DNA of 64,000 nucleotides from Nitrosopumilus sp. (GCA_965203315.1 CBDBCE010000004.1:1-64000), one strand, 5' to 3'. Counted from the first letter of the stretch, positions 12,553 to 55,478 are shown. Translations and numbers: made by a program. Notes: generated from the sequence alone by a model not told the origin.

Positions 12553-12580
12553 TGAACAAATTGTTCATTAGGCTTAAATA
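12553..12580 (+). promoter_or_regulatory. S-layer promoter copy 1 (palindrome TGAACAAATTGTTCA + TTAAATA box), facing the 3' end of its inverted gene
   Basis: Same sequence as found directly upstream of the S-layer ATGs at 36372 and 50345. Confidence 0.85.
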
Positions 12581-12581
12581 C

Positions 12582-12609
12582 AAACTATTGATGTGAATAT
12601 CAATAACAT
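12582..12609 (+). repeat. Putative recombination site, locus 1 left: AAACTATTGAT-GTGAAT-ATCAATAACAT
   Basis: Inverted relative to 17725-17752; one of six homologous sites. Confidence 0.85.
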
Positions 12610-12824
12610 GTATAATTGTACAGGTTGTACAAGTGCTTGTAAAGTTATCTGACATGACCTTTTACAGTCTATTAGTCTACGTACCTACTTCACATCTCTT
12701 GTATCAAGTATCTTGTGAATGAGTAATATTGTATAATGCAAGAGTCAAGAATGAAGGAGTAGAGATCATCGTATATTGTCATTGACACTGTATGTAGATA
12801 TCACTATGCATAGTTGTATCATAT

Positions 12825-12840
12825 AAAAAAAGAAAAAAAA
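12825..12840 (-). terminator. Oligo-T terminator of S-layer gene 1
   Basis: T8-C-T7 on the minus strand, 9 nt after the stop codon. Confidence 0.7.
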
Positions 12841-12848
12841 GGTTTGAA

Positions 12849-15800
12849 CTAGTTTACAGTTATTGTTGTTGTCTGTTGTGGAGATAGTGCAGTTGGTATA
12901 GTCAACGACTCCCATGCAAATACGGTAATTGTGTATTCACCGGATGCTGTTGGTATCCAAGACTGAGATGGACTAAACGACTGAGATGGTGTTAGTGAAC
13001 CATCAATCCAAGACAGAGATACTGTAACGCCATCGCTATCTTGAATTTGTACCAAGTATGCAAATGGCTGGTCTTTGTCTTGTGTGTTTGTCAAATCTGC
13101 AGTGATCTGGACTTGTTGATCTATTGATACTGTACTGAGTGTTGTACCTGTAGAGTCTACTATTCTCAACGACTCGATCTTTACTCGTTCTAGAGGAGGT
13201 ACTATTGTTCCTATTATGGTGGTTGCAGTGATGTCTTCAGAGTCGCCTGTATTGTATGGAGCAGGTAGAGTGTTGTCGCTGTACTTTGCAGTGACTGTGT
13301 CTCCTTCTTCTGTGGATAGTTTGTGACCGCCTGATTGGACAGAGAGTCCAAAGAATACAGTACCTTCAAAGATACCACTTGCTGGTTGAGTCTCTGTTAC
13401 TGTAAGGGTTATTCCACTAGGTGCACTAGAAGACCATACTTTGACCTCAAAGTTGTCTGCAGATTCTGGATTCAAGTTCATGTCGGGATCGATTACACGT
13501 AGTACGCCTGTAGCTGTAGCAGGATAACTTGCTTCTAGCCACTGAACCTCACCAATGTTCCAACGGATTAGAGCAGACTTGCGAACAGTCTCTTCGTCAG
13601 AGAACTCGAATGATACCTCGAGTCCGTCGTCGTTGTCTGTTGGTAATAGTCCATCGGTTGGTCCTTTACAGCTATCACATGTACGACCTGTGACGTCTTT
13701 ACCGTTCTCTCCTGTGGAATCATCACCGTCTGCGTCGTACGAGAATCCTGTCAGTATTACTTCACCTGTAAAGATACCAGTGTTTGTACCTGTCTCTACG
13801 AGTTTGTAGTTTTTAATGTCGTCGGATCTTGTAGCAACACGCACTGGATATGGATCCGCACCAATCTCGTCTACTTGGTTTGTGTTTAGGTTGTGATCAG
13901 GAGCTGTTACAGTAATGAATACCTTGTCGGTCCAACTGTATACGCTTTGATCTAGTTCTATTGTAGCACCAAAGTTTGATGTGAATACCGTTCTGTCGAT
14001 ATCTTCTGTATTATCACCTACAAAGTCTGCACCTGATGGTCCATAGTCGGTGTATTCTAGCTTGATCTCTTCACCACGCTCTAGTCTGTCGTTGTCTATG
14101 GCCTTGGGAACAGATATGACCACTTGGAAGATACCTGTGCTAGGACCAGTCTCTCGTAGAGAACCTGGTTCTGCATCGAATATACCTTCACTCAGATTCT
14201 TGGTACCTGCGTCCGAGTCCCACTTTATCAGATCAAGTGTGTATGTTTCGCGTGTACCGCTGTCTAGATCAAGGTCTGGATCGATGAGTGTTACGATCAT
14301 GTCCGAGCCTATCACATATACAGACTTGTCTGTCTGTAGAGCACCGTTTCGTAGATCAAAGGTAGCAGAGTCTGTGACTGTACGTGGGTTACCAGAAGCA
14401 TCTGTTGTATCGTTGTACTGTACGGTAAGGATATCACCTTGTAGGATGCATGTACGGCTTGTTGTACCGTCAGCTATTGTTCTACTTGGACAGTCACTGC
14501 CACTTGGCCCATCTATGTAAGATAGATCAAAGCTTACTTCGAACACTCCAGATTCAGGAGATGTCTCTGTTAGAGCACCAAACTTTGCTGGCTCTGGACA
14601 TTCACCACCACTATCTCGTGCATTAGTGTACTTTAACTCTGCCAAGAGATATGCTGTCTGTTTCGTTGTCTTTTCAGCGTCTGTAGCATCAGTATATGCC
14701 TGTAGTGCATCATCTCGTATCTGTTTTAACTTGCTGATTGCATCGCTTGCGTTTGAATCTTCGCCACCAGCATGACCTATTGCACACTCGTCACCACTGC
14801 GAGAGATCGTGACCTTTACTGGACCATTTCCGTCCTCGTCTTCGATCTTGTCCTCACCTGTAGGATTCAAGTTGTAATCTGGGTCGTTTACTTGAACATA
14901 GACTTTGACTGTACCTAGTGGAAGAGGTTCAGGAGGATTCTTCATGTCCAAGAATCCTGAAGAGCCTGGGTCTGTATCAGTGCCGTATGGAACTGGATAT
15001 ACAGTTCTATCTAGCGATACAGAGCCTGTACTTGCACCAATCGATGCAGAGTCACCAGCTGTGACTATCTGACCAGATGCATCTCTAAAGTCTAGATATG
15101 TTACGCCAATATCTTTGCCGCTTGTAGGTGTGTTAGGGTTTCTCGTGTTTACTGTATCGTCGTCATTAAAGTTGCATACTTGTTTTGGTATAGAAAATGA
15201 ACCTGTAAAGACTCCTGTACTGGATCCGGTCTCTTGTAGAGTGAATCCGGTTTTAGCGAGTCCGTTCTGAATGTTATTATCTAGGTCACATGCGCCAGAT
15301 TTCCATCTCTCACCACCAATGGTTACTTCGAGTAGCATTCCTAGTGATTTGCCACCTGGTAGTAGAGACTTGTACTTGATACCAGCTACATTGGTTACAC
15401 TCATGCCTACTTGATCTCTATCTGTGTCATTGTGGTTACTGTCCATCACTACCGTATAGGTATCAGCACGATCAGGATCTGTATTCAGATCAGAGTCCTC
15501 TAGTGTGATTACGACATTGCTGCCTACACTGTATGTCTCTGCGTTCAGAGATACCACACCACTAGAGGTTGCGATATCTTGTTGATCAGAGACCACAGCC
15601 ATGTTGCCGTTCGAGTCTATGTCTGCATAGTTTACTCGAGCATCAGAGCCTGTAATGTCCTCAAAGGCGATGAATTTGACTTCGTTGCCTATTGGGGTGA
15701 TGCTTTCGTATATGAAACCAGTTTTGATTAATTGCTTAGCTTCATTTTCAACGAATTGGTCATGTACCATAACATCAAGTTGGTTTACCATAACGTACTC

Positions 15801-17726
15801 TAGCGTTCCTGTAAAGGTGCTGGTGTTCTCGCCAGTCTCTTCTACCTCGACTCGTATAATCTGGTTTGCAACTCTCTCATCTGCTTGTGCACCATCATTA
15901 TAGAACCCATAGGAGAAGAAATCTGAAACTATTGGATATTCCTCGCCTCCTACAAATTTAAAGGGACTTGGGAAGTGTAGTGATAGTAGAAGTGGTGTAT
16001 TATCGTCTACGTTGACTTTATTTGATAGTTCTGCACCGGATATTGAAAAGTATGCACCCATATACCCACCACCACCAGCGGAATGAGCAGCTTGGACACC
16101 CCACGATGTCATGTCTCTGAGGTCATTAGTAAGAGAGTATGGGAAATCATTATTAGTAGAGCCCTTAAGAGATGCACCATAAATCACATTCCTGTCATTG
16201 TCGAGTAAGACAAGAGTGCCATCTATGCCATCTATACCAAAGATACTATAATCATAGTTGAATAGATTGCGACCTGTAAAGTTACCAACGCCGTTAAGCC
16301 CATCGTCATTGATTGATTTACGAAGATCTCCAAAAGTACCGAATGGAATAGCAACCGTGTTGACAGTAGTATTAGTAGCGACTGATATGATACCTCGGTG
16401 ACTATCATCGACGGTGTAATTTAGTACGTATATGCCACTTTGACTGGAATCTGTCGAATATGTTGGAGTGTTAATCGATCCAGTATTGTATCCATAGATT
16501 GTAATTGTATCAGTAGAACTGACACCGTCCTTTAGTGTATGTGGATCACCCGTCATGAATATTGGAATTCTTGCGTCTGGATTGGTTATCGTTTGATCGT
16601 CTTCTGCATCACTGTTGAGGTTTTGATCTGCATCGACTATGGTTAGGTCTATCTTTTCACCAGAGTTCCATGTACCGTCCTTGATATCGAGGTCTACTGT
16701 AGCAGTTGTGAGTCGTACGTTTACAGATACAGTTTCATCACTATACGTGATTTGAGTATTTTGACCGCGTGGTGCATTATCTTGAACCATTATGGGAGAC
16801 TTGTCATCGTTGGTGATGGTAAATACGCCCGTGTTCGGACCAGTCTCTTCAAAGATGTAATTTGTAGTACCCGATTCTAGTTGTAGTAGATCATTAGTGT
16901 CACTAGATCCTATGTCATCTATGCTAAAGCTACACTTGTCATCTTTACAACCAAGATTGGTACTAGTTGGCATGATCGGTCGCTTTTCAGATTCACGAAT
17001 CTTGCTAGAATTATTATCGTACATGTATGTTGGAACACCACCATCTACTGCATATCTCCAGACATCTTTAGTTGTCGGATCTATGTTTAGTATATGGTCA
17101 GTTATCTTTACGTGTACGTGAGAGTTTCTCGGATATGATGTTCTGTCTAGTGTAAGATCATTGTTTACAGAGTCATCATATGTGATCGATATTGTTTGTG
17201 GCGATCCAGCCTTGTGATACACTATGTTAAAGGTATCATCGAGTTCAAAAGACTTTACTATATCAGTGGCGTTTCCAGTCTTCTCGCCAATAGTAATGCC
17301 TGCTTGCCTAACGATATTTTTCACTTTAGGCTGACCATCATCAGTAGAATGCCACAAATTCTGGGCATCGTCAAATGAAGGAGTATTGCCATCAGGATCA
17401 TCAACCGCTCTAAAGTACCCATACCAATTGCCATCAGTGTGTCTATGCATCTTTAGCGTTGTGTCATCAACAGTTACACGAGGCTCAGCATCGTCTGCAT
17501 CACGGATCAACGGATCATTTACAATTACTTGCACTATCTGTAGTCCACCAAAGGTGTTCTCGAACCTAGAGCCATATCCATTTGGATCAGCAGCTGAGAC
17601 GTATAGGTTTGGTGTCGACTGGGCGTAAACTGGCTCCATGCTCGGCATAGCAAAGGTCAGTCCGCCTGCGACCATTATTGTCATTAGTATTAAACTAGTT
17701 GTTTTTCGTCCTATTTCGTTATTCAT
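12849..17726 (-). CDS. S-layer protein paralog 1 (SlaA-like, 1625 aa)
   Basis: Signal peptide MNNEIGRKTTSLILMTIMVAGGLTFA; repeated ETGxNTGxF motifs; C-terminal QSFSPSQSWIPT...FAWES, as in Nitrosopumilus S-layer proteins; true start is the ATG at 17726. Confidence 0.9.
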   Translation of the reverse strand: MNNEIGRKTTSLILMTIMVAGGLTFAMPSMEPVYAQSTPNLYVSAADPNGYGSRFENTFGGLQIVQVIVNDPLIRDADDAEPRVTVDDTTLKMHRHTDGNWYGYFRAVDDPDGNTPSFDDAQNLWHSTDDGQPKVKNIVRQAGITIGEKTGNATDIVKSFELDDTFNIVYHKAGSPQTISITYDDSVNNDLTLDRTSYPRNSHVHVKITDHILNIDPTTKDVWRYAVDGGVPTYMYDNNSSKIRESEKRPIMPTSTNLGCKDDKCSFSIDDIGSSDTNDLLQLESGTTNYIFEETGPNTGVFTITNDDKSPIMVQDNAPRGQNTQITYSDETVSVNVRLTTATVDLDIKDGTWNSGEKIDLTIVDADQNLNSDAEDDQTITNPDARIPIFMTGDPHTLKDGVSSTDTITIYGYNTGSINTPTYSTDSSQSGIYVLNYTVDDSHRGIISVATNTTVNTVAIPFGTFGDLRKSINDDGLNGVGNFTGRNLFNYDYSIFGIDGIDGTLVLLDNDRNVIYGASLKGSTNNDFPYSLTNDLRDMTSWGVQAAHSAGGGGYMGAYFSISGAELSNKVNVDDNTPLLLSLHFPSPFKFVGGEEYPIVSDFFSYGFYNDGAQADERVANQIIRVEVEETGENTSTFTGTLEYVMVNQLDVMVHDQFVENEAKQLIKTGFIYESITPIGNEVKFIAFEDITGSDARVNYADIDSNGNMAVVSDQQDIATSSGVVSLNAETYSVGSNVVITLEDSDLNTDPDRADTYTVVMDSNHNDTDRDQVGMSVTNVAGIKYKSLLPGGKSLGMLLEVTIGGERWKSGACDLDNNIQNGLAKTGFTLQETGSSTGVFTGSFSIPKQVCNFNDDDTVNTRNPNTPTSGKDIGVTYLDFRDASGQIVTAGDSASIGASTGSVSLDRTVYPVPYGTDTDPGSSGFLDMKNPPEPLPLGTVKVYVQVNDPDYNLNPTGEDKIEDEDGNGPVKVTISRSGDECAIGHAGGEDSNASDAISKLKQIRDDALQAYTDATDAEKTTKQTAYLLAELKYTNARDSGGECPEPAKFGALTETSPESGVFEVSFDLSYIDGPSGSDCPSRTIADGTTSRTCILQGDILTVQYNDTTDASGNPRTVTDSATFDLRNGALQTDKSVYVIGSDMIVTLIDPDLDLDSGTRETYTLDLIKWDSDAGTKNLSEGIFDAEPGSLRETGPSTGIFQVVISVPKAIDNDRLERGEEIKLEYTDYGPSGADFVGDNTEDIDRTVFTSNFGATIELDQSVYSWTDKVFITVTAPDHNLNTNQVDEIGADPYPVRVATRSDDIKNYKLVETGTNTGIFTGEVILTGFSYDADGDDSTGENGKDVTGRTCDSCKGPTDGLLPTDNDDGLEVSFEFSDEETVRKSALIRWNIGEVQWLEASYPATATGVLRVIDPDMNLNPESADNFEVKVWSSSAPSGITLTVTETQPASGIFEGTVFFGLSVQSGGHKLSTEEGDTVTAKYSDNTLPAPYNTGDSEDITATTIIGTIVPPLERVKIESLRIVDSTGTTLSTVSIDQQVQITADLTNTQDKDQPFAYLVQIQDSDGVTVSLSWIDGSLTPSQSFSPSQSWIPTASGEYTITVFAWESLTIPTALSPQQTTTITVN

Positions 17727-17752
17727 GTTATTGATATTCCAATCAATAATTT
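17725..17752 (-). repeat. Putative recombination site, locus 1 right: AAATTATTGAT-TGGAAT-ATCAATAACAT
   Basis: Overlaps the start codon; followed on + by gcaaat, like the right flank of locus 3. Confidence 0.85.
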
Positions 17753-18117
17753 GCAAATGATTGAAAGATACACATCTAACGATATGTGTTGAAGCAACAA
17801 ATCAAACAGATTTCAGTCTCGACTATTGCATTGTCATCTTGTCTTGAAATATGGCAGAAACTTTGAATTACGCAATATTTTACTATATAATTCTGATCTC
17901 TATTAATTCAAGTCTTAGATGTAACATCTTCACAACATCCACAATATTTGTCAGACCAACGCTTTGACGAATTAGTAGTTTGGAGGATCAGTACAGAAAC
18001 ATTGCATTAGGATATGCCTGTTACAAAGTTTCATGTCTTTTCATAGGATGGAGCCTAGTACGTTGCATACATTAGAACGGTTGAATTATATACAAAAATC
18101 GGTGATCAAAAGCTAAC

Positions 18118-18492
18118 TTGGTAGGCGAGCTGGCAGGCAACTATAGTGTTATAGTGTTAATGTTTGGTTTTGCATGTGCAGCCATGGCTCCTGCTTTACT
18201 CGTATCTAGAATGATCTCTCCCAGAAAACATAGTAACCCTGTAAAGTTTCTTCCAATGGAATGTGGTCAAGTGCCTAGTGGTGCAGGACGTACTCACTTT
18301 ATGATGCAATATTATCCCTATATCTTGATGTTTGTAATATTTGACGTAATGGCGATCTTTCTATATGCATGGGGTACGGCACTCTTTGAGATACCAAAGG
18401 CAGCTACACTCCCAATGATGGGTTTCTTGGCAATAATGTTTGGAGCCATGGCATTTGCATTATATCAATCTGGAAAGCGACGAATATGGTAG
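18118..18492 (+). CDS. nuoA: NADH-quinone oxidoreductase subunit A
   Basis: PMECGQ, YILMFVIFDV motifs. Confidence 0.93.
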   Translation: MVGELAGNYSVIVLMFGFACAAMAPALLVSRMISPRKHSNPVKFLPMECGQVPSGAGRTHFMMQYYPYILMFVIFDVMAIFLYAWGTALFEIPKAATLPMMGFLAIMFGAMAFALYQSGKRRIW

Positions 18493-18532
18493 TTATTTAT
18501 ACAAAGAACTCGTATGGTAATAGGAGATAAAA

Positions 18533-19048
18533 ATGCTCAAAGATTTGGTAACTCCAGAGAACGCAAATGTCTTCGTAGGTAAACTAGGCGATATTTTAGT
18601 AAAAGCTATTGACAAACCACTTGGATATGCGATCAATTGGGGTCGAATATGGTCATTATGGCCAGTTCATATAGAGACTGCGTGTTGTAGTGTGGAGTTT
18701 GGAGCAGCATCAAGTCCTAGATATGATGTTGAACGATTTGGTATAATCGAAGCATTTGGTTCACTACGTCAATGTGATCTAGTTGTAGTCCAAGGAACTA
18801 TTACAAGAAAGATGGCTCCTCGATTGAGACTAGTATATGATCAGATGCCGGAACCAAAGTATGTTATTGCAATGGGCGCATGTGCAATTACTGGTGGACT
18901 ATACTTTGACTCGTATAATGTACTTCCAGGAATTGACGGTGTGATTCCAGTAGATGTGTATGTGCCAGGTTGTCCTCCAAGACCCGAGACACTGATACAA
19001 GGTTGCATGTTATTACAAGAAAAGATCAAACGACTCAAAGCGCGCTAG
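18533..19048 (+). CDS. nuoB: NADH-quinone oxidoreductase subunit B
   Basis: ACCSVE, MGACAITGG, PGCPPRPE. Confidence 0.96.
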   Translation: MLKDLVTPENANVFVGKLGDILVKAIDKPLGYAINWGRIWSLWPVHIETACCSVEFGAASSPRYDVERFGIIEAFGSLRQCDLVVVQGTITRKMAPRLRLVYDQMPEPKYVIAMGACAITGGLYFDSYNVLPGIDGVIPVDVYVPGCPPRPETLIQGCMLLQEKIKRLKAR

Positions 19049-19582
19049 ACATGATAATAAGACATATGATTAATCTTACCGATCTCGAATTCTAGTCAAA
19101 TGGTAAATATCACAACACTAATTTTGACAAATTTTGAACATGATGCGAATCTGTCAAATATCGTAAACTTTAGATGCTTGACCCAAAAACACGTATTTTG
19201 AATTTATCGTGTATTGTTCCCTGACAAGTTACAGAATATGATGGTTGTTTTCCTGTACTAGTTTTTTAGGCTATTGCATATGCGATGTCTCAATTTAGAC
19301 TAGTCCGCACATTACAAAATGCTATACAATCCGAATTATTTTGAATCAAATCTGGTGCCGATCATGATTTCGGCTGTAATCCACCAAGTCGATCATGTAC
19401 TAGAATGTCAAAATCACTTATTCTGTATTCCGACATGTCTGTTTGGCGTTGGCGTAACCGCTTACGTATTAGAATATAATCATCTAGCTCACATGCTAGT
19501 CTCATATCTTGGCTAGAGAGTTACTAAGATAAAATAACGCGAGGCTCAATATGTTTTTATGTTGTGATATAGTAATACTAGT

Positions 19583-19674
19583 ACTCTGGTACCCCACAGG
19601 TATCGGTGAGAGTGGTTGTTGCGTCTAGTAATGACTACGGGGAGGATAAGGGGGAGCGTTCTCCCCCCCTCCTG
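19583..19674 (-). ncRNA. Putative structured RNA downstream of DUF3800 gene
   Basis: GC-rich stretch starting right at the stop codon; hairpin GGAGG-GGGGGAG-AACG-CTCCCCC-TTAT-CCTCC and ACTCT...AGAGT pairing. Confidence 0.55.
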
Positions 19675-20415
19675 TTAAATTATCTTCAAACCGTAACCAA
19701 CATACTGTCCATCTCTAGAATAGAATTTATCCTTAAGCATAGAATAGTATCTATTCCAATATTGCACATGTACATCGCTTGAGCTATTTACTCGATGATG
19801 TTTACGCATACAGTATGCTACACAGTCTGCAATCTGCACTAATTCATTCCATCTAGAATTAGTAAACAACACTCCACTCATCAAATAATTAAAGTTTGAA
19901 TGTATTGTACCTTTATTTAGTATTGGTTCTAGTTTGGATTGAAGTTTTTGATCTTTCATTCCAGCAGAATCTATGATCGTCATCCCATATTCTAGAGATT
20001 CATTAGCCTTTTGAAACATATTGTTTCTTTGTGCCAAATAACGGTTAAACCGCTCAAGTACAGGTATGTATCCAAACACTTCATTGTCTAGATATTTTCT
20101 TTTTTTATCAACAATAACTCCAATAATATCTAGATCAGTCTCTTTAGCAGTTATGAATTCAAAGAGATCATCAAATATTGAATATGTGGCGTTTAGAGAT
20201 ATTTTTTTGTATATGCCACTACGATTAAGTATGTCTTTTACGTGAAGTTCTACATTATCTGGATGAATATCTGGAAAGTGTTTAGATTTGATATTCCTGA
20301 TTTCTCTTTTTATGTGGCGCCAAGAGTGGTCGTGAATGATTATTGCTGCTAGTACAAAATTTTCAGGATCGCTATACTCTGGTCCTCCAGATGAGTCAAT
20401 ATATGACAGATACAT
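19675..20415 (-). CDS. DUF3800 domain protein (RNase H-like)
   Basis: N-terminal YIDSSG, ELHVKD and C-terminal VQIADCVAY motifs. Confidence 0.85.
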   Translation of the reverse strand: MYLSYIDSSGGPEYSDPENFVLAAIIIHDHSWRHIKREIRNIKSKHFPDIHPDNVELHVKDILNRSGIYKKISLNATYSIFDDLFEFITAKETDLDIIGVIVDKKRKYLDNEVFGYIPVLERFNRYLAQRNNMFQKANESLEYGMTIIDSAGMKDQKLQSKLEPILNKGTIHSNFNYLMSGVLFTNSRWNELVQIADCVAYCMRKHHRVNSSSDVHVQYWNRYYSMLKDKFYSRDGQYVGYGLKII

Positions 20416-20777: not shown

Positions 20778-22476
20778 GTATGAGGTTAGGTCTCACGCAC
20801 AACTTTTAGGAGTGTATCATAGACGTTGAGACCTTGTTGCTCCCATGTTGTTACACATGTAAAGATATTGCCAACTCGTCGTTTACTCTCCTCAGATACG
20901 ATACGTTGAGTTACCTTGCGGAATAGCACCATTGATCGTATAGCTCGCTCTGCTCTGTTGTTTGTGTATTCCATACCATAGTATAGCACAAATGTGTATA
21001 GATCATCTGCAGCATTAGCTAAATGAACTCCAAATTTGCGACAAGCTTCGTTGTCTAGTTTCTTGTACTCTGCTGCAAGTGATAATGTCTTTTGCACTAG
21101 ATCATCTACTCTGTATTTTAGGTATATGTCCACATGATTGGGATTGTCCACCTGTAGTGCTTTTGCAATTTCAAGTAGTTTCTGTAATCTTTTGTACATT
21201 AGTACAGTATGTACGTCACACATTGTATCTTTTGCATTTCGCAGTATGTGCGCCCAACAACGTTGCCGTACATTGAATAGTTTGTACACGACATATCCAT
21301 CCGACACGAGTGGTATCAGAATATACTTTTTGAACGTTTTTTCTAGAAAATCTTTTGTACGCTCTGGCGATATGATGAATTGCGTACCATAATCGCCGAC
21401 AAGAACCCAGACCCATCCCAATTTCGCAGCAAGGGACATCGACGTCTCATCCATGTAGATTACCTTGGATTTTAGGTTCATTCTCTCTATTTTTTTGACA
21501 TATTTGTCTAATTTATCGGCAATCGTGTCTATTGCCCCCGTTACCATCTTTTTAGATATACACGGGTCTAGGCATTGAAGAGTACTAGTTATTGTTCTGA
21601 TACTACAGCCATTCTTTCTCATTATGGTTGCAATCACGCCTAGAATTGGGCACAACATTGTGTTGTGTAGTATGTCTGGGATGCTGTCGAATGTATCGCC
21701 TGATGCGCCACAATCTCTACAGTTGTAAAAGTATCCGATATGGAGTATGTGCAATATTATGATCTGTATGTCAATCGTTCTCTTTTGTCTAGACCTCTTG
21801 TTGTCAACATGCTTACTGCCACATCCATCACACTTTTCTTTTTTATGATGTCTTGTCTTGTCTGTTTTTATGTTGTCGGAAACTCCTTTGTGACCCTTGT
21901 CTTGTCCTGCTTTTTTCCATTCGCTTTTAGATTTTCTTGTACCCTTTTTTACATGATCTGGTTGTTTTGATGAGGGTACGTTAGAATTGTCGAGCTGCTT
22001 GCGTCTCGTTTCTTTGTTCTTGGCCTGTGCTGTTTGTACCTCTATCTTTTCTTTTTTACCCTCTATCTTTTTTCTGGTGTTACGAATCTTGGTCTGTGAT
22101 AGTTGTTGACCACGTTCTATAATTTTGATCATCCTTTGGAATACATTAAAACAATCATTGATTGAATTTGGAGATACTTGGAGTCCCATAATTGTAGCAA
22201 GTAAAATCTCGTACAGTTTCATATTCATTCTCTTCTGCTTTGCAACTTGTTTTTGTAGACTCGTAATGGTCTCTTGTTGTTGTTCGATGGTATCATTTTG
22301 CTGCTTGACAGTATCCTCTAGATCTGCTATCTTGGCAGATGTCTCCCTATCTTTCTTGGTAGTCTTTTGTCTCGCGATCTGTCTAGACATTGTCATAATT
22401 GGTAGTATTTGGATTTAGCCTAGATTATCTAGAAAAGTTGTCCCTTTGGGTAGATCTTTTAGACCTAACCTCGTAC
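20778..22476 (-). mobile_element. IS66-family element (single-ORF, ISBst12-like), 1699 bp
   Basis: TIRs GTATGAGGTTAGGTCT / revcomp GTACGAGGTTAGGTCT; 8-bp TSD CATAATTA at 20770-20777 and 22477-22484. Confidence 0.9.
20786..22396 (-). CDS. IS66 family transposase
   Basis: Coiled coil, NSNVPSS, GQDKGHKG, CxxC...CxxC Zn finger, MDET, SDGY..Y, QRCWAH, TNNRAERAIR. Confidence 0.92.
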   Translation of the reverse strand: MTMSRQIARQKTTKKDRETSAKIADLEDTVKQQNDTIEQQQETITSLQKQVAKQKRMNMKLYEILLATIMGLQVSPNSINDCFNVFQRMIKIIERGQQLSQTKIRNTRKKIEGKKEKIEVQTAQAKNKETRRKQLDNSNVPSSKQPDHVKKGTRKSKSEWKKAGQDKGHKGVSDNIKTDKTRHHKKEKCDGCGSKHVDNKRSRQKRTIDIQIIILHILHIGYFYNCRDCGASGDTFDSIPDILHNTMLCPILGVIATIMRKNGCSIRTITSTLQCLDPCISKKMVTGAIDTIADKLDKYVKKIERMNLKSKVIYMDETSMSLAAKLGWVWVLVGDYGTQFIISPERTKDFLEKTFKKYILIPLVSDGYVVYKLFNVRQRCWAHILRNAKDTMCDVHTVLMYKRLQKLLEIAKALQVDNPNHVDIYLKYRVDDLVQKTLSLAAEYKKLDNEACRKFGVHLANAADDLYTFVLYYGMEYTNNRAERAIRSMVLFRKVTQRIVSEESKRRVGNIFTCVTTWEQQGLNVYDTLLKVVRET

Positions 22477-36344: not shown

Positions 36345-36345
36345 C

Positions 36346-36379
36346 AAACTCTTGATGAGATTATCAATAACATGAATAA
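36346..36379 (+). repeat. Recombination site/IR, locus 2 left (spacer GAGATT)
   Basis: Perfect 34-bp inverted repeat of 41532-41565. Confidence 0.92.
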
Positions 36380-39300
36380 CGAAATAGGACGAAAAACAAC
36401 TAGTTTAATACTAATGACAATAATGGTCGCAGGCGGACTGACCTTTGCTATACCAAGCATGGAGCCAGTCTATGCCCAGTCGACACCAAACTTGTACGTG
36501 TCAGCTGTTAGTGAAAAGTTTGACAACACCTTTGGCGGACTCCAAATTATAGAGGTCGTTGTATCTGATCCGCTAATAACTGATGAGGGAGATGCAGCTC
36601 CCAGAGTTACTGTTGATGACGAAGATCTCCCAATGCATCATGCTGGAGACGGCTCGTGGTATGGTTGGTTTATGGATAAAGACAGAGACGCCAATGATGA
36701 TGGCGACGTTCTCGATATAGTTGAGGGAGATTATGACTATGCAAATAAATTATCCGAGTTTAAACAACTTAATTTCCCAGAAAATAGAGGCAATACAGCA
36801 AAGATAGCACCAGAATTTCTATACCTTGATCTTGACTATGGTGAAGAGATCGACGTAGTGTATAACAAAGCTGGAAACCCTCAAACGGTAACACTCACAT
36901 ACGACAAATCTAAAAACAACTCTATCGAACTTGATCGGGACTTTTACACACCTGGCGCAGAGGTACATGTTACAATTACTGACCATGTACTCAATATAGA
37001 TCCAACTAGCAAAGATGTCTGGCAGTTTCCTACGATCGACAGCACTAGTAGTACATACCCTTGGATGAAAGTAGGTGAAGCCATGGGAAGATTGAAACTA
37101 AATCCAGAGACAAATTATGTTGGCATGTATGCAACACAACTCGGTTGTGACGATGATTGTGCTCTTAGAATTCCGGTAGGTACTACAGAGAATGTAATAA
37201 CGTTTGTACCATCATCTTATACTGTAGCCGAGAATTATTTCACAAATGCGGTTCTATTCATCGAAACTGGACCAAACACTGGTGTCTTTGAGTTGATTAG
37301 TGATCGCAAGGACGCGAACGACAATCCAGCTAATAAGATAATGATCAAATCAGATGCACCACGAAACACCAATACGCAGATTATATACGATCAGGATAAC
37401 GTAGCCGTAAACGTACGACTAACTGCTGCTACAGTAAACCTAGATATCGAGGACGGCACGTGGAACTCTGGCGAAAAGATAGACCTAACCGTAGTCGATG
37501 CAGATCAAAACAAAGACAGTGATGCAGAAGACGATCAAAAGGTATCTGATCCCATGTCAAGAATTCCTACATTCATCACCGGCGATCCGCATACACTAAT
37601 GGACAGTAAAGACAAGTCTGCACATACATATACGCAGGCAGGTTCCACTTGGCAGAAATATCCAATAGATCCAAATGATCGGATATACGTACGTGACTTA
37701 GATTTTAGAGTCGATGATAGTCATAGGGGAATACTGTCGTGGAATGGTTCAAATAATGTTCGCGATAAAGAACCGCTTGCACTTGCAGGAGTACATAGCA
37801 GCTTTGTTGGAGGGTTGTTTACTATTCCTTTAGGTACGCTAGGTGAACTACGTGAATCAATCCATGATGATCACACCACTAGGGGAGATTTTACAGGACG
37901 GAATCTATTCAACTATGACTTTAGCGTCTTCGATACAAACAACATACGTGTTGATCTAAACATACACAACAGTACAGGAGATGTAGTTTACTTTGAAACG
38001 CTGCTAGATAATAGCGACAGTAGACTCTCCGCGTATGATGTCACCTCTGGTATTAGAGATATAACCGGCTTTATGGTCAAAGATAGAAACAACGAGACTC
38101 TGACATATTCACTATCTAGTTCTGAATTTCTATCAAAGGTCGGTACTGACGCTCAAGTCACACTGGAAATAATACTCAAAGACGGAAATGCCTACACCAC
38201 ACCAGCATTTACTATCACCGAAGGCAAAGAATATCCCATAGTCGCAGATTTCTTCTCATATGGATTCTATGACGATGGCGCACAAGCAGGCGAGAGAGTT
38301 GCAAACCAAATCATACGAGTCGAGGTAGAAGAGACCGGTGACAACACTAGTACCTTTACAGGAACACTAGAGTACATCATGATAAACCAGCTTGATATGA
38401 TAGTGACTGATACTCTAGTAACTGGTGCTAATGTGACTGTAAATGGCAATCAATTACCATCATATCCAAGAACAGATTACATATTCGACAGCATTACACC
38501 AATAGGCAACGAAGTAAAATTCATCGCCTTTGAAGACATCACAGGCTCTGACGCGCGAGTAAACTATGCAGACATAGACTCGAACGGCAACATGGCTGTG
38601 GTCTCTGACCAACAAGATATCGCAACCTCTAGTGGTGTGGTATCTCTGAATGCAGAGACATACAGTGTAGGCAGCAATGTCGTAATAACACTAGAAGACG
38701 CAGACTTGAATACAGATCCTGATCGTGCAGATACCTATACCGTAGTGATGGACAGTACCAACATGGATCCAGATAGAGATCAAGTAGGCATGAATGTAAC
38801 CAATGTATCTGGCATCGAGTACGAATCTCTACTGCCAGGCGACAAATCACTAGGAATGCTCCTAGAGGTGACCATTGGTGGCGAGAGATGGAAATCCGGA
38901 TGTACACCTAGTATTAGTGGACTTGGTGCAACAGGATTTACTCTACAAGAGACAGGATCCAGCACAGGAGTCTTTACAGGTTCATTTGCTATACCAAAAG
39001 ATGTATGCATGGATAACAAGAAAGTAGGCGTAAGCGGCAAAGACATTGGTGTAACATATCTAGACTTTAGAGATGCATCTGGTCAGATAGTCACTGCTGG
39101 TGACTCTGCATCGATTGGTGCAAGTACAGGCTCTGTATCTCTAGATAGAACTGTATATCCAGTTCCGTATGGTCAGGGTACAACAACTGGTTCAAGAGCC
39201 CTAGACATGGCCGGAGCAAATCTTGCAGGCGGTACAGTCAAAGTCTATGTTCAAGTAAACGATCCAGATTACAACTTGAATCCTACAGGTGAGGACAAGA

Positions 39301-41276: not shown

Positions 41277-41284
41277 TTCAAACC

Positions 41285-41302
41285 TTCTTTTTTTCTTTTT
41301 TT
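41285..41302 (+). terminator. Oligo-T terminator of S-layer gene 2
   Basis: ttctttttttcttttttt just after the stop codon. Confidence 0.7.
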
Positions 41303-41531
41303 ATATGATATAATAATGCACAGTAATAGCTGCATATGGTAAAGATAACAGTAACCGTATGTGATAGTACTACATACATCACGTTATAATACAATGATCT
41401 CTACTCTTACATTATACAATACTGCTCATTCACAAGATACTTGATATGAGAGATCTGAACTTGGTGTGTGGTCAATAGACTATAAACATCATGCTAAACT
41501 TTGCACAGGCACATTGCACAGCCTGTACCAA

Positions 41532-41565
41532 TTATTCATGTTATTGATAATCTCATCAAGAGTTT
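41532..41565 (-). repeat. Recombination site/IR, locus 2 right
   Basis: Reverse complement is AAACTCTTGATGAGATTATCAATAACATGAATAA, identical to 36346-36379. Confidence 0.92.
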
Positions 41566-42374: not shown

Positions 42375-42448
42375 GGGCCCGTAACTCAGCTTGGTAGAGT
42401 GGCCGGCTCATAACCGGCAAGCCAAGGGATCGAAGCCCTTCGGGCCCA
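42375..42448 (+). tRNA. tRNA with CAT anticodon, probably tRNA-Ile2 (agmatidine-modified)
   Basis: Cloverleaf GGGCCCG...CGGGCCCA; GCCGG-CTCATAA-CCGGC; acceptor stem is Ile-type rather than initiator Met. Confidence 0.85.
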
Positions 42449-50287: not shown

Positions 50288-50317
50288 AATGAACAAATTG
50301 TTCATTAGGCTTAAATA
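50288..50317 (+). promoter_or_regulatory. S-layer promoter copy 3 (palindrome AATGAACAAATTGTTCATT + TTAAATA)
   Basis: Same spacing to ATG as copy 2. Confidence 0.85.
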
Positions 50318-50318
50318 C

Positions 50319-50346
50319 AAACTCTTGATGGGAATATCAATAACAT
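50319..50346 (+). repeat. Recombination site, locus 3 left: AAACTCTTGAT-GGGAAT-ATCAATAACAT
   Basis: Inverted relative to 55451-55478. Confidence 0.85.
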
Positions 50347-53300
50347 GAATAACGAAATAGGACGAAAAACAACTAGTTTAATACTAATGACGATAATGGT
50401 CGCAGGCGGACTGACCTTTGCTATACCAAGCATGGAGCCAGTCTATGCCCAGTCGACACCAAACCTATACGTCTCAGCTGCTGATCCAAATGGATACGGA
50501 GCTAGATTCGACAACACCTTTGGTGGACTACAAGTTGTCGAAGTCATTGTAAATGATCCATTACTAACTGATTCAAATGATGCCATGCCTCGTGTTACAA
50601 TAAACGATGACATAAAGCTCAACATGACACAAGCTGGTGATGGATCTTGGTATGGATACTTTGCAGATAAAGGGCGTGATGGTAACGGTGATGATGATGA
50701 CACAGACATTACCGGATATTTCCTCAATACCGCAACTGTACAACTAGCACTAGATGGCGAACTTAATTATGATGGCCTATATGGTAGCAGTGAAGACTCT
50801 GCGCGGTTCACAGGTGTGGGTGGTTTCACAGACGATAACTTGGTCAATAATTCTCCCTCAAAGCGAGGTTCAACAGCTAAAATACTATCTGATGATGGTA
50901 ATCAAATAAAGTATCTTGATCTTGATGATGGTGACGATGTAAAGATCGTATACCAAAAGGCAGGAAACCCACAAACTGTAACCTTGACATATGACAAATC
51001 AAAGAACAATGGAATTGAACTTGACAGAAACTCGTACGCAAGAGACGCAAATGTGTACATTACTCTCACAGATCACGTACTAAACGTAGACCCAACATCT
51101 AAAGACTTTTGGCAGTTCTTTCTTGATGAAAATTCGCCTTCTGCACCGGCACATCAGCTTTTTCCAGATGATAGAGTAGTATTAGCAACTAGCAATCTAA
51201 ATGCTGCTGTTAATGGTTTCACCCATGCTCAACTTGGTTGTGACGATAACGATTGTGTGTTATCGATACCAAATGATAGCATACTTCGACTAGACGATGA
51301 TGATGACGCTACAAACAATCCCAACAATATTACCTTTGAAGAAACTGGACCAAATACCGGTGTATTTGAGATAAGAGACGATGATGGCGATACATCAATA
51401 ATGGTTGACGACAATGCGCCGAGGGGACAAAATAGTGTTATCACTTATTCTGGTAACAATGTAGCCGTAAACGTACGACTAACTACAGCTACTGTAGATC
51501 TAGATGTATCGGACGGCACATGGAACTCTGGCGAAAAGATCGATCTAACCATAGTCGATGCAGATCAAAACAAAGACAGTGATGCAGAAGACGATCAAAT
51601 GATCAAGAACCCAAATGCAAGAATTCCAACAATGATCATAGGTGATCCATACACACTAGCCGATGAGCGTACTCCACATCGTGGCAACACATACCCTACA
51701 TTCTTCTTGGATCGACCCACCGCTTATATTGTTGAAACATTTACGACAATCACTGGTGGCAAGTCACCCATCGAAACATCTTTGACGATAGATAATGATC
51801 ATCGACTGGGTCAAATACCGGCCAACAATACAGTACCTGACTTGACAACTCCGTCTAATGGCATAACTGCCAACATGTGGTTGTCTCTTGGATCCCTTTC
51901 TGACCATCAAGCAGCAATGAGTCTACAGGATGACTTTGTAGGTGTAAATCTACTAAACTATGACCTTAGTAGTGTCGGTGCTAACAAGTACTGGCTCGCA
52001 ATATATCCTAACTATGCTGTTCCTACTGGCACCAATCTCCCTTACTACGCTGAGAGATATTATGCAGAGTTGGAAGCTGATGGAAGAGGTGTATTTGATC
52101 TGTCAACCGATATGACGCACTTTGCAGCCAACAACAATACCAAGGTGACAGCAACAAATGCAAATCTACCCGTGCGTTTCGAAATGGCAATCCTTGCAGA
52201 ATTTACAAGTACATTTGATGTAAGCAAGACATATCCAATAGCTGTAGATATCTTTAGCATTGGATTCACGGGTGACGGCGCACAGGCCTCTGAACGTATC
52301 AACAATCAGATAATACGAATCGAGGTAGAAGAGACCGGTGACAACACCAGCACCTTTACAGGAACACTAGAGTACATCATGATAAACCAACTAAACGTAA
52401 ACAATGCAGATACATACAAAGACATCACTCCAATAGGCAACGAAGTCAAATTCATCGCCTTTGAGGATATGACAGGCTCTGACGCGCGAGTAAACTATGC
52501 CGACATTAACTCGAACGGCAACAATGCTACAGTCTCCGACCAACAAGATATCGCAACCTCTAGTGGTGTGGTATCTCTAAACGCAGAGACATACAGTGTA
52601 GGCAGCAATGTCGTAATCACACTAGAAGACTCTGATCTAAATACAGATCCTGATCGAGCAGATACCTATACTGTCGTAACACGAAACATGACTGGTGGAA
52701 CCACGAACATTGGTAAGGACATGGACCAAGTGGGTATCGATGTCATGTCCAAGTATGAGACTCTACTACCAGGTAAGAAATCACTAGGAATGCTACTCGA
52801 AGTAACCTTTGATGGTAAGAGATGGCAATCTGGCTGTACTCTGTCTGACGGAGTTCAGAACGGACTCGGCGAAACAGGATTCACTCTACAAGAGACCGGA
52901 TCCAGTACAGGAGTCTTTACAGGTTCATTTTCTGTACCAAAAGAGGTATGCATGGGATCTGACAAACTATCTGTAAGCGGCAAAGACATTGGTGTAACAT
53001 ATCTAGACTTTAGAGATGCATCTGGTCAGATAGTTACAGCGGGCGACTCTGCATCGATTGGTGCAAGTACAGGCTCTGTATCTCTAGATAGAACTGTATA
53101 TCCAGTCCCATATGGTCAGGGTACAGCAGGTTCTTCTAGAGCCCTAGACATGGCCGGAGCAAATCTTGCAGGCGGTACAGTCAAAGTCTATGTTCAAGTA
53201 AACGATCCAGACTACAACTTGAATCCTACAGGCGAGGACAAGATCGAAGACGAGGACGGAAATGGTCCAGTAAAGGTCACGATCTCACGCAGTGGTGACG

Positions 53301-55210
53301 AGTGTCTAATAGGTAATGCAGGCGGTACTAGATCAGTTGCAACCGATGAGATCAGTAGATTGATGCAAGATCGAGATACAAAGAGAGATCTCTATAATGC
53401 AGACAAGACAAACACCGACAAACAGACAGCATATCTCTTGGCACAACTAAAGTATGATAATGCTAGAAGTACCGGCGGTGCATGTCCAGAGCCAGAACCG
53501 TTTGGTGCTCTAACAGAGACATCTCCTGAATCAGGAGTGTTCGAAGTAAGCTTTGATTTGTCTCACAGTATAGGACCAAGCAGTACTGACTGTCCAAATG
53601 ATGGTAACTGTATCCTACAAGGTGACATACTCACCGTACAGTACAACGACACAACAGATGCTTCTGGTAACCAACGCACAGTCACAGACTCTGCTACCTT
53701 TGATCTACGAAACGGCGCTCTACAGACAGACAAGTCTGTATATGTTATAGGCTCGGACATGATCGTAACACTCATCGATCCAGACCTTGATCTAGACAGC
53801 GGTACACGCGAAACATACACACTTGATCTGATCAAGTGGGACTCGGACGCAGGTACCAAGAATCTGAGTGAAGGTATATTCGATGCAGAACCAGGCTCTC
53901 TACGAGAGACTGGTCCTAGCACAGGCATATTCCAAGTGGTCATATCTGTTCCCAAGGCCATAGACAACGACAGACTAGAACGTGGTGAAGAGATCAAGCT
54001 AGAATACACCGACTATGGACCATCAGGTGCAGACTATGTAGGTGATAATACAGAAGATATCGACAGAACAGTATTCACATCAAACTTTGGTGCTACAATA
54101 GAACTAGATCAGAGCGTATACAGTTGGACCGACAAGGTATTCATCACTGTAACAGCTCCTGATCACAACCTAAACACAAACCAAGTAGACGAGATTGGTG
54201 CGGATCCATATCCAGTGCGTGTTGCTACAAGATCCGACGACATTAAAAACTACAAACTCGTAGAGACAGGTACAAACACTGGTATCTTTACAGGTGAAGT
54301 AATACTGACAGGATTCTCGTACGACGCAGACGGTGATGATTCCACAGGAGAAAACGGTAAAGACGTCACAGGTCGTACATGTGATAGATGTAACGGACCA
54401 ACCGATGGACTATTACCAACAGATAACGACGACGGACTCGAGGTATCATTCGAGTTCTCTGACGATGAGACTGTTCGCAAGTCTGCTCTAATCCGTTGGA
54501 ACATTGGTGAGGTTCAGTGGCTAGAGGCAAGTTATCCTGCTACCGCTACAGGCGTACTACGTGTAATCGATCCAGACATGAACTTGAATCCAGAATCTGC
54601 AGACAACTTTGAGGTCAAAGTATGGTCTTCTAGTGCACCTAGTGGAATAACACTTACAGTAACAGAGACTCAGCCAGCAAGTGGTATCTTTGAAGGTACT
54701 GTATTCTTTGGACTCTCTGTCCAATCAGGTGGTCACAAACTATCCACAGAAGAAGGAGACACAGTCACTGCAAAGTACAGTGACAACACTCTACCTGCTC
54801 CGTACAATACAGGCGACTCTGAAGACATCACTGCAACCACTATAATAGGAACAATAGTACCTCCTCTAGAACGAGTAAAGATCGAGTCATTGAGAATAGT
54901 AGACTCTACAGGTACAACACTCAGTACAGTATCAATAGATCAACAAGTCCAGATCACTGCAGATTTGACAAACACGCAAGACAAAGACCAGCCATTTGCA
55001 TACTTGGTACAAATTCAAGATAGCGATGGTGTTACAGTATCTCTGTCTTGGATTGATGGTTCACTAACACCATCTCAGTCGTTTAGTCCATCTCAGTCTT
55101 GGATACCAACAGCATCCGGTGAATACACAATTACCGTATTTGCATGGGAGTCGTTGACTATACCAACTGCACTATCTCCACAACAGACAACAACAATAAC
55201 TGTAAACTAG
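50345..55210 (+). CDS. S-layer protein paralog 3 (SlaA-like, 1621 aa)
   Basis: As for paralogs 1 and 2. Confidence 0.9.
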   Translation: MNNEIGRKTTSLILMTIMVAGGLTFAIPSMEPVYAQSTPNLYVSAADPNGYGARFDNTFGGLQVVEVIVNDPLLTDSNDAMPRVTINDDIKLNMTQAGDGSWYGYFADKGRDGNGDDDDTDITGYFLNTATVQLALDGELNYDGLYGSSEDSARFTGVGGFTDDNLVNNSPSKRGSTAKILSDDGNQIKYLDLDDGDDVKIVYQKAGNPQTVTLTYDKSKNNGIELDRNSYARDANVYITLTDHVLNVDPTSKDFWQFFLDENSPSAPAHQLFPDDRVVLATSNLNAAVNGFTHAQLGCDDNDCVLSIPNDSILRLDDDDDATNNPNNITFEETGPNTGVFEIRDDDGDTSIMVDDNAPRGQNSVITYSGNNVAVNVRLTTATVDLDVSDGTWNSGEKIDLTIVDADQNKDSDAEDDQMIKNPNARIPTMIIGDPYTLADERTPHRGNTYPTFFLDRPTAYIVETFTTITGGKSPIETSLTIDNDHRLGQIPANNTVPDLTTPSNGITANMWLSLGSLSDHQAAMSLQDDFVGVNLLNYDLSSVGANKYWLAIYPNYAVPTGTNLPYYAERYYAELEADGRGVFDLSTDMTHFAANNNTKVTATNANLPVRFEMAILAEFTSTFDVSKTYPIAVDIFSIGFTGDGAQASERINNQIIRIEVEETGDNTSTFTGTLEYIMINQLNVNNADTYKDITPIGNEVKFIAFEDMTGSDARVNYADINSNGNNATVSDQQDIATSSGVVSLNAETYSVGSNVVITLEDSDLNTDPDRADTYTVVTRNMTGGTTNIGKDMDQVGIDVMSKYETLLPGKKSLGMLLEVTFDGKRWQSGCTLSDGVQNGLGETGFTLQETGSSTGVFTGSFSVPKEVCMGSDKLSVSGKDIGVTYLDFRDASGQIVTAGDSASIGASTGSVSLDRTVYPVPYGQGTAGSSRALDMAGANLAGGTVKVYVQVNDPDYNLNPTGEDKIEDEDGNGPVKVTISRSGDECLIGNAGGTRSVATDEISRLMQDRDTKRDLYNADKTNTDKQTAYLLAQLKYDNARSTGGACPEPEPFGALTETSPESGVFEVSFDLSHSIGPSSTDCPNDGNCILQGDILTVQYNDTTDASGNQRTVTDSATFDLRNGALQTDKSVYVIGSDMIVTLIDPDLDLDSGTRETYTLDLIKWDSDAGTKNLSEGIFDAEPGSLRETGPSTGIFQVVISVPKAIDNDRLERGEEIKLEYTDYGPSGADYVGDNTEDIDRTVFTSNFGATIELDQSVYSWTDKVFITVTAPDHNLNTNQVDEIGADPYPVRVATRSDDIKNYKLVETGTNTGIFTGEVILTGFSYDADGDDSTGENGKDVTGRTCDRCNGPTDGLLPTDNDDGLEVSFEFSDDETVRKSALIRWNIGEVQWLEASYPATATGVLRVIDPDMNLNPESADNFEVKVWSSSAPSGITLTVTETQPASGIFEGTVFFGLSVQSGGHKLSTEEGDTVTAKYSDNTLPAPYNTGDSEDITATTIIGTIVPPLERVKIESLRIVDSTGTTLSTVSIDQQVQITADLTNTQDKDQPFAYLVQIQDSDGVTVSLSWIDGSLTPSQSFSPSQSWIPTASGEYTITVFAWESLTIPTALSPQQTTTITVN

Positions 55211-55217
55211 TTCAAAC

Positions 55218-55235
55218 TTTTCTTTTTCTTTTTTT
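55218..55235 (+). terminator. Oligo-T terminator of S-layer gene 3
   Basis: T-tract just after the stop codon. Confidence 0.7.
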
Positions 55236-55450
55236 ATATGATACAACTATGCATAGTGATATCTACATACAGTGTCAATGACAATATACGATGATCTCTA
55301 CTCCTTCATCCTCGACTCTTGCATTATACAATATTACTCATTCACAAGATACTTGATACAAGAGATGTGAAGTAGGTACGTAGACTAATAGACTGTAAAA
55401 GGTCATGTCAGATAACTTTACAAGCACTTGTACAACCTGTACAATTATAC

Positions 55451-55478
55451 ATGTTATTGATATTACCATCAATAGTTT
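55451..55478 (-). repeat. Recombination site, locus 3 right: AAACTATTGAT-GGTAAT-ATCAATAACAT
   Basis: Reverse complement of atgttattgatattaccatcaatagttt. Confidence 0.85.

Follow-up and report, generated by a model that had tools for sequence, protein, structure and literature searches.

What does it mean when an archaeon holds several of its largest surface-protein genes between inverted copies of one short sequence, each beside a promoter that some of these genes face and others do not? We consider this question for a Nitrosopumilus sp. genome (GCA_965203315.1; 2.47 Mb in seven contigs, with a completeness rating of 99.98%), starting from the 64,000 nucleotides that form the beginning of its contig C5 (CBDBCE010000004.1:1-64000; hereafter the window). 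The window is dominated by three open reading frames (ORFs) of 1625, 1634 and 1621 amino acids (aa), counted from the ATG, which encode paralogous surface-layer (S-layer) proteins (paralogs 1, 2 and 3). A first-pass annotation had proposed that each of these genes is an invertible cassette next to a fixed promoter. We find this feature to be real, non-random and lineage-specific. We consider it probable, on balance, that these loci are functional ON/OFF switches in which a recombinase inverts the entire gene for an S-layer variant.

Architecture of the loci in the window

All six sites proposed in the first-pass annotation stand at the positions it gave. A pattern search of the window returns six exact matches to a core, TTGAT-N6-ATCAATAACATG, each within one of the proposed 28-bp sites and located between a TATA box and an ATG or in the inverted counterpart of that position, against an expectation of 0.00 from 100 shuffles. 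The arms of the core are dyad-symmetric (TTGAT/ATCAA, reaching TATTGAT/ATCAATA where the outer base is A) and enclose an asymmetric 6-nt spacer. On the plus strand, the three loci share the same order: a palindrome, a TTAAATA box, the core, an interior of ~5.1-5.2 kb, the inverted core, and a short, partly shared flank. The palindrome, TGAACAAATTGTTCA, with the TTAAATA box 21 nt further on, lies 21-35 nt to the left of each left site (12553, 36317 and 50290). The invertible spans measure 5159, 5208 and 5148 bp at loci 1, 2 and 3, respectively. As had been claimed, the inverted repeat of locus 2 is a perfect 34-mer. The repeats are less alike at loci 1 and 3, agreeing in 33-34 of 43 positions and identical without a break over 16 and 15 nt, respectively.

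Loci 2 and 3 are in the ON orientation, with the promoter joined to the gene. At locus 2, the fixed promoter (palindrome 36317-36331, TATA box 36338-36344, + strand) leads through the left inverted repeat (36346-36379, +; core 36352-36374, spacer GAGATT) into the gene for paralog 2 (36372-41276, +). This is followed by a terminator and a type B trailer (41277-41531, +) and by the right inverted repeat (41532-41565, -; core 41537-41559), which has the same spacer, GAGATT. Locus 3 is built in the same manner, with its promoter (palindrome 50290-50304, TATA box 50311-50317, +), left inverted repeat (50319-50352, +; core 50325-50347, spacer GGGAAT), the gene for paralog 3 (50345-55210, +), a terminator with a type A trailer (55211-55444, +), and a right inverted repeat (55445-55478, -; core 55450-55472) whose spacer, GGTAAT, has one mismatch to the left spacer.

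Locus 1 differs from loci 2 and 3 in that its interior is inverted. The promoter of this locus (palindrome 12553-12567, TATA box TTAAATA 12574-12580, +) and left inverted repeat (12582-12615, +; core 12588-12610, spacer GTGAAT) run into a trailer of ~240 nt between a T-rich terminator and the site (12611-12848, -), which is 98% complementary to the trailer of locus 3. This is the OFF arrangement. The intact gene for paralog 1 (12849-17726, -) points away from its promoter, and its ATG faces the right flank at the core at 17724-17746, within the right inverted repeat (17719-17752, -; spacer TGGAAT in contig C5). Directly beyond lies a remnant of an inverted promoter copy without a TATA box (17747-17775, -). 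The first-pass annotation had described such sequence simply as a shared right flank. The flank is present, and we recast it as what is left of an inverted copy of the promoter-proximal sequence, decayed to the point that the TATA box is destroyed (flank-side copy against promoter side: compare ...CCTCCAAAATACAAACT with ...GGCTTAAATACAAACT). The module is therefore asymmetric by construction, with one live promoter and one dead. Overall, the proposed architecture of a site between TATA box and ATG, a fixed promoter, and a gene that flips as a whole holds in the sequence, as does its logic.

We propose that a site-specific recombinase, encoded elsewhere and acting in trans, flips a 5.1-5.3-kb segment that carries one S-layer paralog and is bounded by two inverted cores. 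Crossover within the core would leave the palindrome and TATA box fixed in place and carry the initiator region, the ATG and the gene along with the inverted segment. In the ON orientation, a strong S-layer promoter conserved across the family would read the gene. In the OFF orientation, the same promoter would read the ~240-nt trailer and run on antisense to the gene, and the gene start would face the TATA-less promoter remnant. With at least seven such intact switches across the chromosome, three of them in the window, cells would display differing combinations of S-layer variants, and the spacers, being specific to each locus, would restrict recombination to its own two sites. We infer that flipping is ongoing and reversible, that orientation sets expression and that the cell benefits; the class of the enzyme is likewise deduced. 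Variation of the surface against viruses or host immunity may be the purpose.

The site-proximal ~165 nt of the trailer are conserved across all loci and the remainder varies (alignment of seven trailers). Moving inward from the trailer-side core, a second palindrome is reached after 8 nt (in the window at 12618-12634, 41513-41530 and 55426-55442). Type A trailers have TGTACA-GGT-TGTACA here, and type B trailers (locus 2 and the locus at 792k on contig C1 described below) have TGCACA-GGC-TGTGCA, a two-sided change that keeps the symmetry. This palindrome may be a site for an accessory protein. We make no claim that the trailer forms a structured RNA (RNAalifold -20 kcal/mol with a covariation term of -0.7; no Rfam match there). 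We also rejected the idea that the cassette is a transposon with terminal inverted repeats: the duplicated unit exceeds the repeats, including both the promoter and the promoter remnant, and there is no transposase inside.

Orientation, spacers and descent across the genome

A search of the whole genome for the core, as suggested in the first-pass annotation, reveals a system that exceeds the three loci of the window. The genome holds 16 exact cores and two one-mismatch cores, always paired around an S-layer gene, giving eight loci, and the arms are invariant in 16 of the 18 sites. Three loci are ON (locus 2, locus 3 and C1:826-831k). Four are OFF, with the promoter joined to the trailer (locus 1, C1:205-211k, C1:792-798k and C1:857-863k). 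Both orientations thus occur among paralogous loci with identical outer flanks. The eighth locus is broken, with its partner sites (C1:1804964 and C1:1845277) 40 kb apart in direct orientation and sharing the spacer GATAAT and the outer bases. At 1805k, the gene end of the cassette carries a promoter of the poly-G type; at 1845k, the 3′ end of the gene has no site. This arrangement would be accounted for if an OFF cassette and an inverted paralog of the poly-G type had undergone homologous recombination, inverting 40 kb. Each of the eight loci has a full promoter of its own; an organisation of the Campylobacter fetus type, in which one promoter serves promoterless homologues, was not found among them.

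The spacers differ between loci and tend to agree within them. All eight promoter-side spacers are distinct, and the two sites of a locus have identical spacers in six of the eight loci, a correspondence equalled in 2 of 40,320 permutations. This count depends on locus 1, where the assembly forks at the right site. Contigs C1 and C5 are identical over 17,739 bases, and their first difference falls at 17740-17741, within the spacer; past the fork, each contig continues into unique sequence. The C1 version of the right junction has the spacer GTGAAT, a perfect match to the left site, in place of the TGGAAT of the C5 version. With the C5 version, spacers are identical in five of the eight loci, and 26 of 40,320 permutations are as good. 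The fork may reflect alternative forms of the genome or an ambiguous path through a repeat family. Contig C1 itself is a closed path, because a 684-aa ORF spans its end and start through the shared stretch.

The agreement does not extend far beyond the spacers. At the 205k and 792k loci, the spacers are identical and locus-specific, and the two sites have different variable bases just beyond the left arm. The base after the ATG is also not the same at both sites of 792k and of locus 1. Homogenisation is therefore confined to ~23 nt at most. Such spacer matching would be expected from staggered strand exchange across the spacer, followed by segregation, and would not be expected from long conversion tracts.

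The encoded proteins are S-layer proteins. In a phmmer search, paralog 2 matches the S-layer protein of N. maritimus (PDB 8c8k, chain 8c8k_A) with E = 0 and 1137 bits, from query residues 141-1633 to chain residues 220-1733, with the N-terminal 108 aa matched at E = 1.9e-26; Pfam gave no family for this paralog. The start MNNEIGRK... is common to all paralogs, and the signal peptide is 96% identical. There follow ~1100 alignment columns with 23-80% identity, and then a last stretch of ~520 residues with 97-100% identity. Synonymous divergence (dS) is 0.09-0.18 in the C-terminal part versus 0.47-1.0 in the variable region, which is 4-8 times lower. The near-identical C-terminal part and its low dS point to concerted evolution there. 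Against the divergence of the variable region, the near-invariance of the core arms stands out. According to the available text of the structural study of N. maritimus, N-terminal domains 1, 2 and 4 are outermost and bear most of the glycans, and the C-terminal domains lie inward (PMC11153153). By this placement, the variable part of the paralogs is the exposed one.

The genes in both orientations are maintained. ORFs are intact in all eight cassettes of the site type (1591-1675 aa). The ratio of nonsynonymous to synonymous divergence (dN/dS) in the variable region is 0.28-0.48 for every pair, and is as low between two OFF copies (0.28 for 205k vs 792k) as between ON copies. By these measures, purifying selection acts on the OFF copies, which remain intact. 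We also placed the ON and OFF states on a maximum-likelihood tree built from the variable region in the seven intact cassettes; the 1845k row, whose switch is broken, was left out. The distribution of states needs at least three changes, and well-supported branches force three. Since recombination among paralogs can distort the tree, the safe reading is at least two or three flips. The inversion that had been predicted from the window is thus borne out in part: flips at exactly these sites have occurred repeatedly, to judge from the presence of both orientations among paralogous loci, the changes on the tree, and the matching of spacers within loci.

Comparison with relatives indicates which parts of the site are new. 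From congeneric species we used 20 loci, containing 21 long ORFs (15 of the 21 start with the MNNE motif), and from the family 52 full-length S-layer genes among 80 loci. A palindrome of this kind, the same TATA box and a 31-nt leader precede the S-layer ATG in 15 of the 21 ORFs and in most of the 52 family loci; the leader is of equal length and ends in ...TCAATAACATG. Because relatives share these elements, the right arm and the ATG represent ancestral 5′ sequence. The TTGAT arm, which makes the core dyad-symmetric, is present in 0 of the 21 and 0 of the 52 genes. An inverted copy of the 5′ region (-60 to +12) of at least 13 nt within 900 or 1500 nt downstream was found in none of the 21 and 52 genes, respectively. 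The longest exact inverted matches are at most 10 nt in the 21-ORF set, and at most 12 nt, in unrelated places, in the 52-gene set. The search of relatives for the core pattern, also suggested beforehand, gave matches in 0 of 150 other genomes of the family. Contigs from metagenomes and genomes yielded chance matches only, among the at least 119 and at least 108 stretches listed; the one scanned contig locus that passed the context filter is a chance match on a Clostridia contig. On this comparative evidence, the site is a derived, lineage-specific feature.

Two further observations concern the relatives. The upstream palindrome reads GAACAA-N-TTGTTC here versus GGACAA...(T/C)GTCC in other species, both halves having changed together, as expected if a dimeric regulator acting on the S-layer promoter binds there. 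Some relatives (G152 C1:1049866-1062499; OZ242041.1) have two S-layer homologues in opposite orientation, from a few kb to 19 kb apart, which may resemble the ancestral state that gave rise to the inverted repeat. In G152, a tyrosine recombinase of ~513 aa, of the same family as those considered below, lies 13 kb from the pair.

Candidate enzymes and alternative explanations

A tyrosine recombinase is the likeliest class of enzyme, as a candidate. There are two PF00589 matches in the genome (38.1 and 22.3 bits), to proteins of ~545 aa that are 39% identical and that both have the H-x-x-R ... G-H ... Y motif. Their genes (C1:1467141-1468766 and C1:412103-413644) lie in regions that look like defence islands (C1:1459000-1477000 and C1:404000-422000), one between a NERD nuclease gene and HerA/NurA-like genes, and the other beside an Ssp-like (phosphorothioation) cluster, an AAA_21 ATPase gene and an SNF2 helicase gene. 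From this context, both look like island integrases, and what makes them the default candidates is solely the form of the core, which is that expected of the tyrosine class. A serine recombinase gene was not found in this nearly complete genome (0 matches each to PF00239 and PF07508), and neither was an SSV-type integrase or a canonical XerA. The IS110 family (PF01548) has 14 matches, most of them near-identical insertion sequence (IS) copies of ~1.35 kb. IS110 seems an unlikely invertase: the copy ~450 nt from the flank-side site at 792k is an ordinary IS beside another repeat element, and no consistent linkage was found. Copies of IS66 in the genome showed no link to the sites either.

Several observations weigh against a recombinase-driven switch. 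The assembly shows three loci ON simultaneously, contrary to what an antigenic switch operating one at a time would produce. Spacers are unequal at locus 3 (one mismatch), at 826k (two), and in the C5 version of locus 1 (two), and the 857k locus is inverted though both arms deviate from TTGAT. No recombinase gene adjoins any locus. Both candidate genes occupy defence-island-like contexts, and members of their family are present in 9 of 40 congeneric species (at most 59% identity, often multicopy), where the site was not found. Inverted repeats of 15-34 exact nt could also allow rare homologous recombination, and the paralogs clearly exchange by homology, to judge from the C-terminal dS and the rearrangement inferred at 1805k/1845k. 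Finally, locus 1 (10500-20000 of the window) was compared with k=31 Logan contigs of four public sequencing runs from three studies. In all four runs, the contigs end at 12582 and start at 17719 or 17724, with no joints, and so offer no direct sign that the locus exists in both orientations. These stops are explained by 30-mers shared with other loci (the promoter with locus 3 and 792k, and the promoter-side core of 826k), and therefore we draw nothing from them.

The main rival explanation builds on homology. It holds that inversions are rare products of general homologous recombination between repeats of 30-45 bp, and that orientations are essentially fixed. The repeats would have been left by an ancient convergent duplication of the 5′ region of the S-layer gene, and the OFF copies would be an archive of silent donors for gene conversion. 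The homologous exchange evident in the C-terminal ~520 aa fits this explanation, as do the 40-kb inversion between inverted paralogs that best explains 1805k/1845k, the inversion at 857k despite its imperfect arms, and the absence of a dedicated recombinase beside any locus. Donor copies would likewise show dN/dS below 1. We judge this explanation unlikely, given four features of the loci. Every OFF locus keeps a full promoter facing its trailer, together with an intact ATG and signal peptide, none of which an archive needs. The dyad-symmetric arm is derived, and is conserved also on the flank side, where it has no promoter role. Identity of spacers within loci is confined to the core and the neighbouring bases differ, unlike the outcome of long conversion tracts. 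Further, homologies of kilobases between paralogs would outcompete repeats of 15-34 nt, yet seven of the eight loci are flipped or unflipped exactly at the core.

Alternatively, the core might be an operator for a transcription factor that regulates all S-layer paralogs, with the downstream copy a relic and the differences in orientation old and non-regulatory. The position of the core, between TATA box and ATG, is indeed one from which a repressor in archaea would block initiation. The dyad symmetry of the core suits any dimeric DNA-binding protein, and a second conserved palindrome stands upstream of the TATA box. We nevertheless regard this account as improbable, as it leaves three patterns unexplained: flank-side sites without a TATA box keep the outer arm (TTGAT in 8 of 9), spacers co-vary within loci, and interiors are exactly inverted at the core in four of the seven loci.

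Least credible by far is the notion that the orientations, or some junctions, are assembly artefacts of a repeated 5-kb gene family, since repeats of 15-34 nt do not confuse an assembler on the orientation of a unique 5-kb interior, each paralog has a unique variable part of 3 kb, contigs of the four public runs cover parts of locus 1 closely up to the repeat boundaries, and seven loci follow the same rule, although the C1/C5 fork in the right core of locus 1 and the unplaced contig C4 do make at least one junction in the family ambiguous. Contig C4 (6.7 kb) holds a paralog with both ends within conserved parts of the cassette and has no placed junctions. The native flank of locus 1, in its C5 or C1 version, was also sought by synteny with three relatives over the first 70 kb of C5 and C1; weak hits excepted, the relatives' genes between the alcohol dehydrogenase gene and the S-layer gene had no counterparts there.

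The public runs provide some further detail on locus 1. Sequence words of this locus occur in seven listed runs, none of them an RNA run, with at least half of the words in five. Contigs of the runs compared cover its flanks, trailer and parts of the gene with 0-6 differences in most pieces (19 in one piece). The stretch 17719-19630, which comprises the right flank with a NuoB-like gene, has a depth 3 to 5.6 times that of both neighbours in two of the four runs, and not in the other two. The excess could be a second strain or a repeated piece.

Relation to known switches and the wider genome

Recombinase-driven switches, our preferred reading of these loci, have several bacterial counterparts. 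In Bacteroides fragilis, promoters of ~200 bp at capsular polysaccharide loci are flipped by the trans-acting serine recombinase Mpi. The arrangement described here is similar in its dispersed surface loci, shared repeat, independent ON/OFF states and an enzyme that would be encoded elsewhere. Unlike in the Bacteroides system, the segment that would flip is a whole 5-kb gene, the division of the promoter falls between its TATA box and the start site, the genome search found no serine recombinase, and the host is an archaeon. Among mycoplasmas, the mpl genes of Mycoplasma penetrans (P35 family) are controlled by the flipping of small promoters, and the vsa system of M. pulmonis and the vsp system of M. 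bovis move genes to a single expression site. These too are large families of surface paralogs subject to site-specific inversion, in the case of mpl with a separate switch for each gene. They use tyrosine-type enzymes and short core sites, and the same enzyme class is the candidate here. In contrast to them, each Nitrosopumilus gene keeps its own promoter and is inverted as a whole.

S-layer genes themselves are inverted in Campylobacter fetus (sap) and Lactobacillus acidophilus (slpA/slpB), where one promoter is connected to different promoterless or silent copies, in a RecA-dependent manner in C. fetus. The likeness lies in S-layer inversion among paralogs with conserved ends and variable middles; the difference is that here there are eight promoters, one per cassette, and an ON/OFF choice instead of a swap. 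In the G segment of phage Mu (Gin) and the related Hin, Cin and Pin systems, a serine invertase aided by a Fis enhancer alternates between two sets of genes. As in those systems, the promoter here is fixed outside and the coding DNA inside would flip, but one face of the segment is a non-coding trailer. Finally, heterospecific lox and FRT variants, the substrates of Cre and Flp, have the same arms and different spacers, and recombine efficiently only between equal spacers. The possession of a separate spacer by each locus, matched within six of the eight, is reminiscent of this behaviour, with the difference that lox variants are engineered. We found no description of a natural genome that uses spacer ‘addresses’ to insulate many switches, as this one may do.

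DNA inversion switches do occur in archaea. As far as its available text goes, a long-read survey of invertons lists 12 putative cases in 42 archaeal genomes, all in Euryarchaeota or Crenarchaeota (bioRxiv 10.1101/2023.03.11.532203). A review of archaeal tyrosine recombinases covers them as integrases, Xer proteins and agents of large inversions, and, in the text available, treats phase variation only for bacteria (PMC8371274). For N. maritimus, two S-layer paralogs are described, the second of them induced in biofilm, and the accessible parts of these reports do not mention inversion (PMC11153153, PMC12448741). Our search of the full-text literature, with subscription journals and supplements outside its reach, turned up no account, for ammonia-oxidising archaea, of S-layer inversion or of phase variation. 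The first-pass annotation was likewise not aware of such a system in this group, and the system is apparently undescribed.

The S-layer is the only cell wall of Nitrosopumilus-type archaea. In N. maritimus, the structural work, so far as available, presents it also as an ammonium-gathering device (PMC11153153). The present genome keeps about a dozen diverged S-layer copies, each apparently connectable to a strong promoter by flipping. If this reading is correct, programmed surface variation, until now a hallmark of bacterial pathogens and gut commensals, would extend to globally important, slow-growing, free-living archaea, and arms races between viruses and ammonia oxidisers would become directly testable. 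The loci would also offer a natural example of spacer-addressed recombination sites, and a compact archaeal promoter-splitting switch that is a potential genetic tool for a group with few tools. The system is of high interest for the biology of archaeal cell surfaces and of virus-host interactions.

Other members of the S-layer family lack the site and carry homopolymer tracts. In two such paralogs, a G9 or G11 tract lies between a TTTATAT box and the ATG, and the frame breaks after ~135 aa; another has a G12 tract in the signal-peptide region and is out of frame. Across this genome of 39% GC, there are 38 poly-G/poly-C tracts of 9-17 nt (e.g. C5:81629, C5:267558, C1:136717, C1:199997, C1:318570 and C6:25086), none of them within the window. 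A TATA-like hexamer lies at most 28 nt upstream on the G strand in 27 of the 38. The tracts group into families of repeated promoters; downstream of several are ORFs (506, 763, 246 and 1325 aa) that encode signal peptides. On this evidence, they are candidates for slipped-strand contingency promoters in an archaeon.

We speculate that cassettes and tracts might together form a multi-locus ‘phasome’, with at least seven cassettes, one trans-acting recombinase, spacer addresses and a layer of poly-G slippage, which would be the first archaeal counterpart of bacterial contingency loci and would probably be driven by viruses with the S-layer as their receptor. We advance this joint reading tentatively, as a possibility that falls somewhat short of an even chance. 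Its poly-G layer, comprising dozens of tracts just downstream of the TATA boxes of secreted-protein genes, is put forward with the same reserve.

The neighbouring genes in the window are ordinary housekeeping genes, encoding an alcohol dehydrogenase, a NuoB-like protein, a polyprenyl synthase, a TenA-like protein, ABCE1 and an M17 peptidase, and there are genes for a tRNA (42375-42448) and the 5S rRNA (55938-56057). An antisense ORF of 156 aa within the locus 1 cassette (14050-14520) has no Pfam family and was treated as a chance occurrence. An IS66-family transposase gene lies at 20786-22396 (-; Pfam 1.3e-29). About a dozen near-identical copies of this element are present genome-wide, one of which splits the S-layer paralog on contig C4, another paralog that lacks the site.

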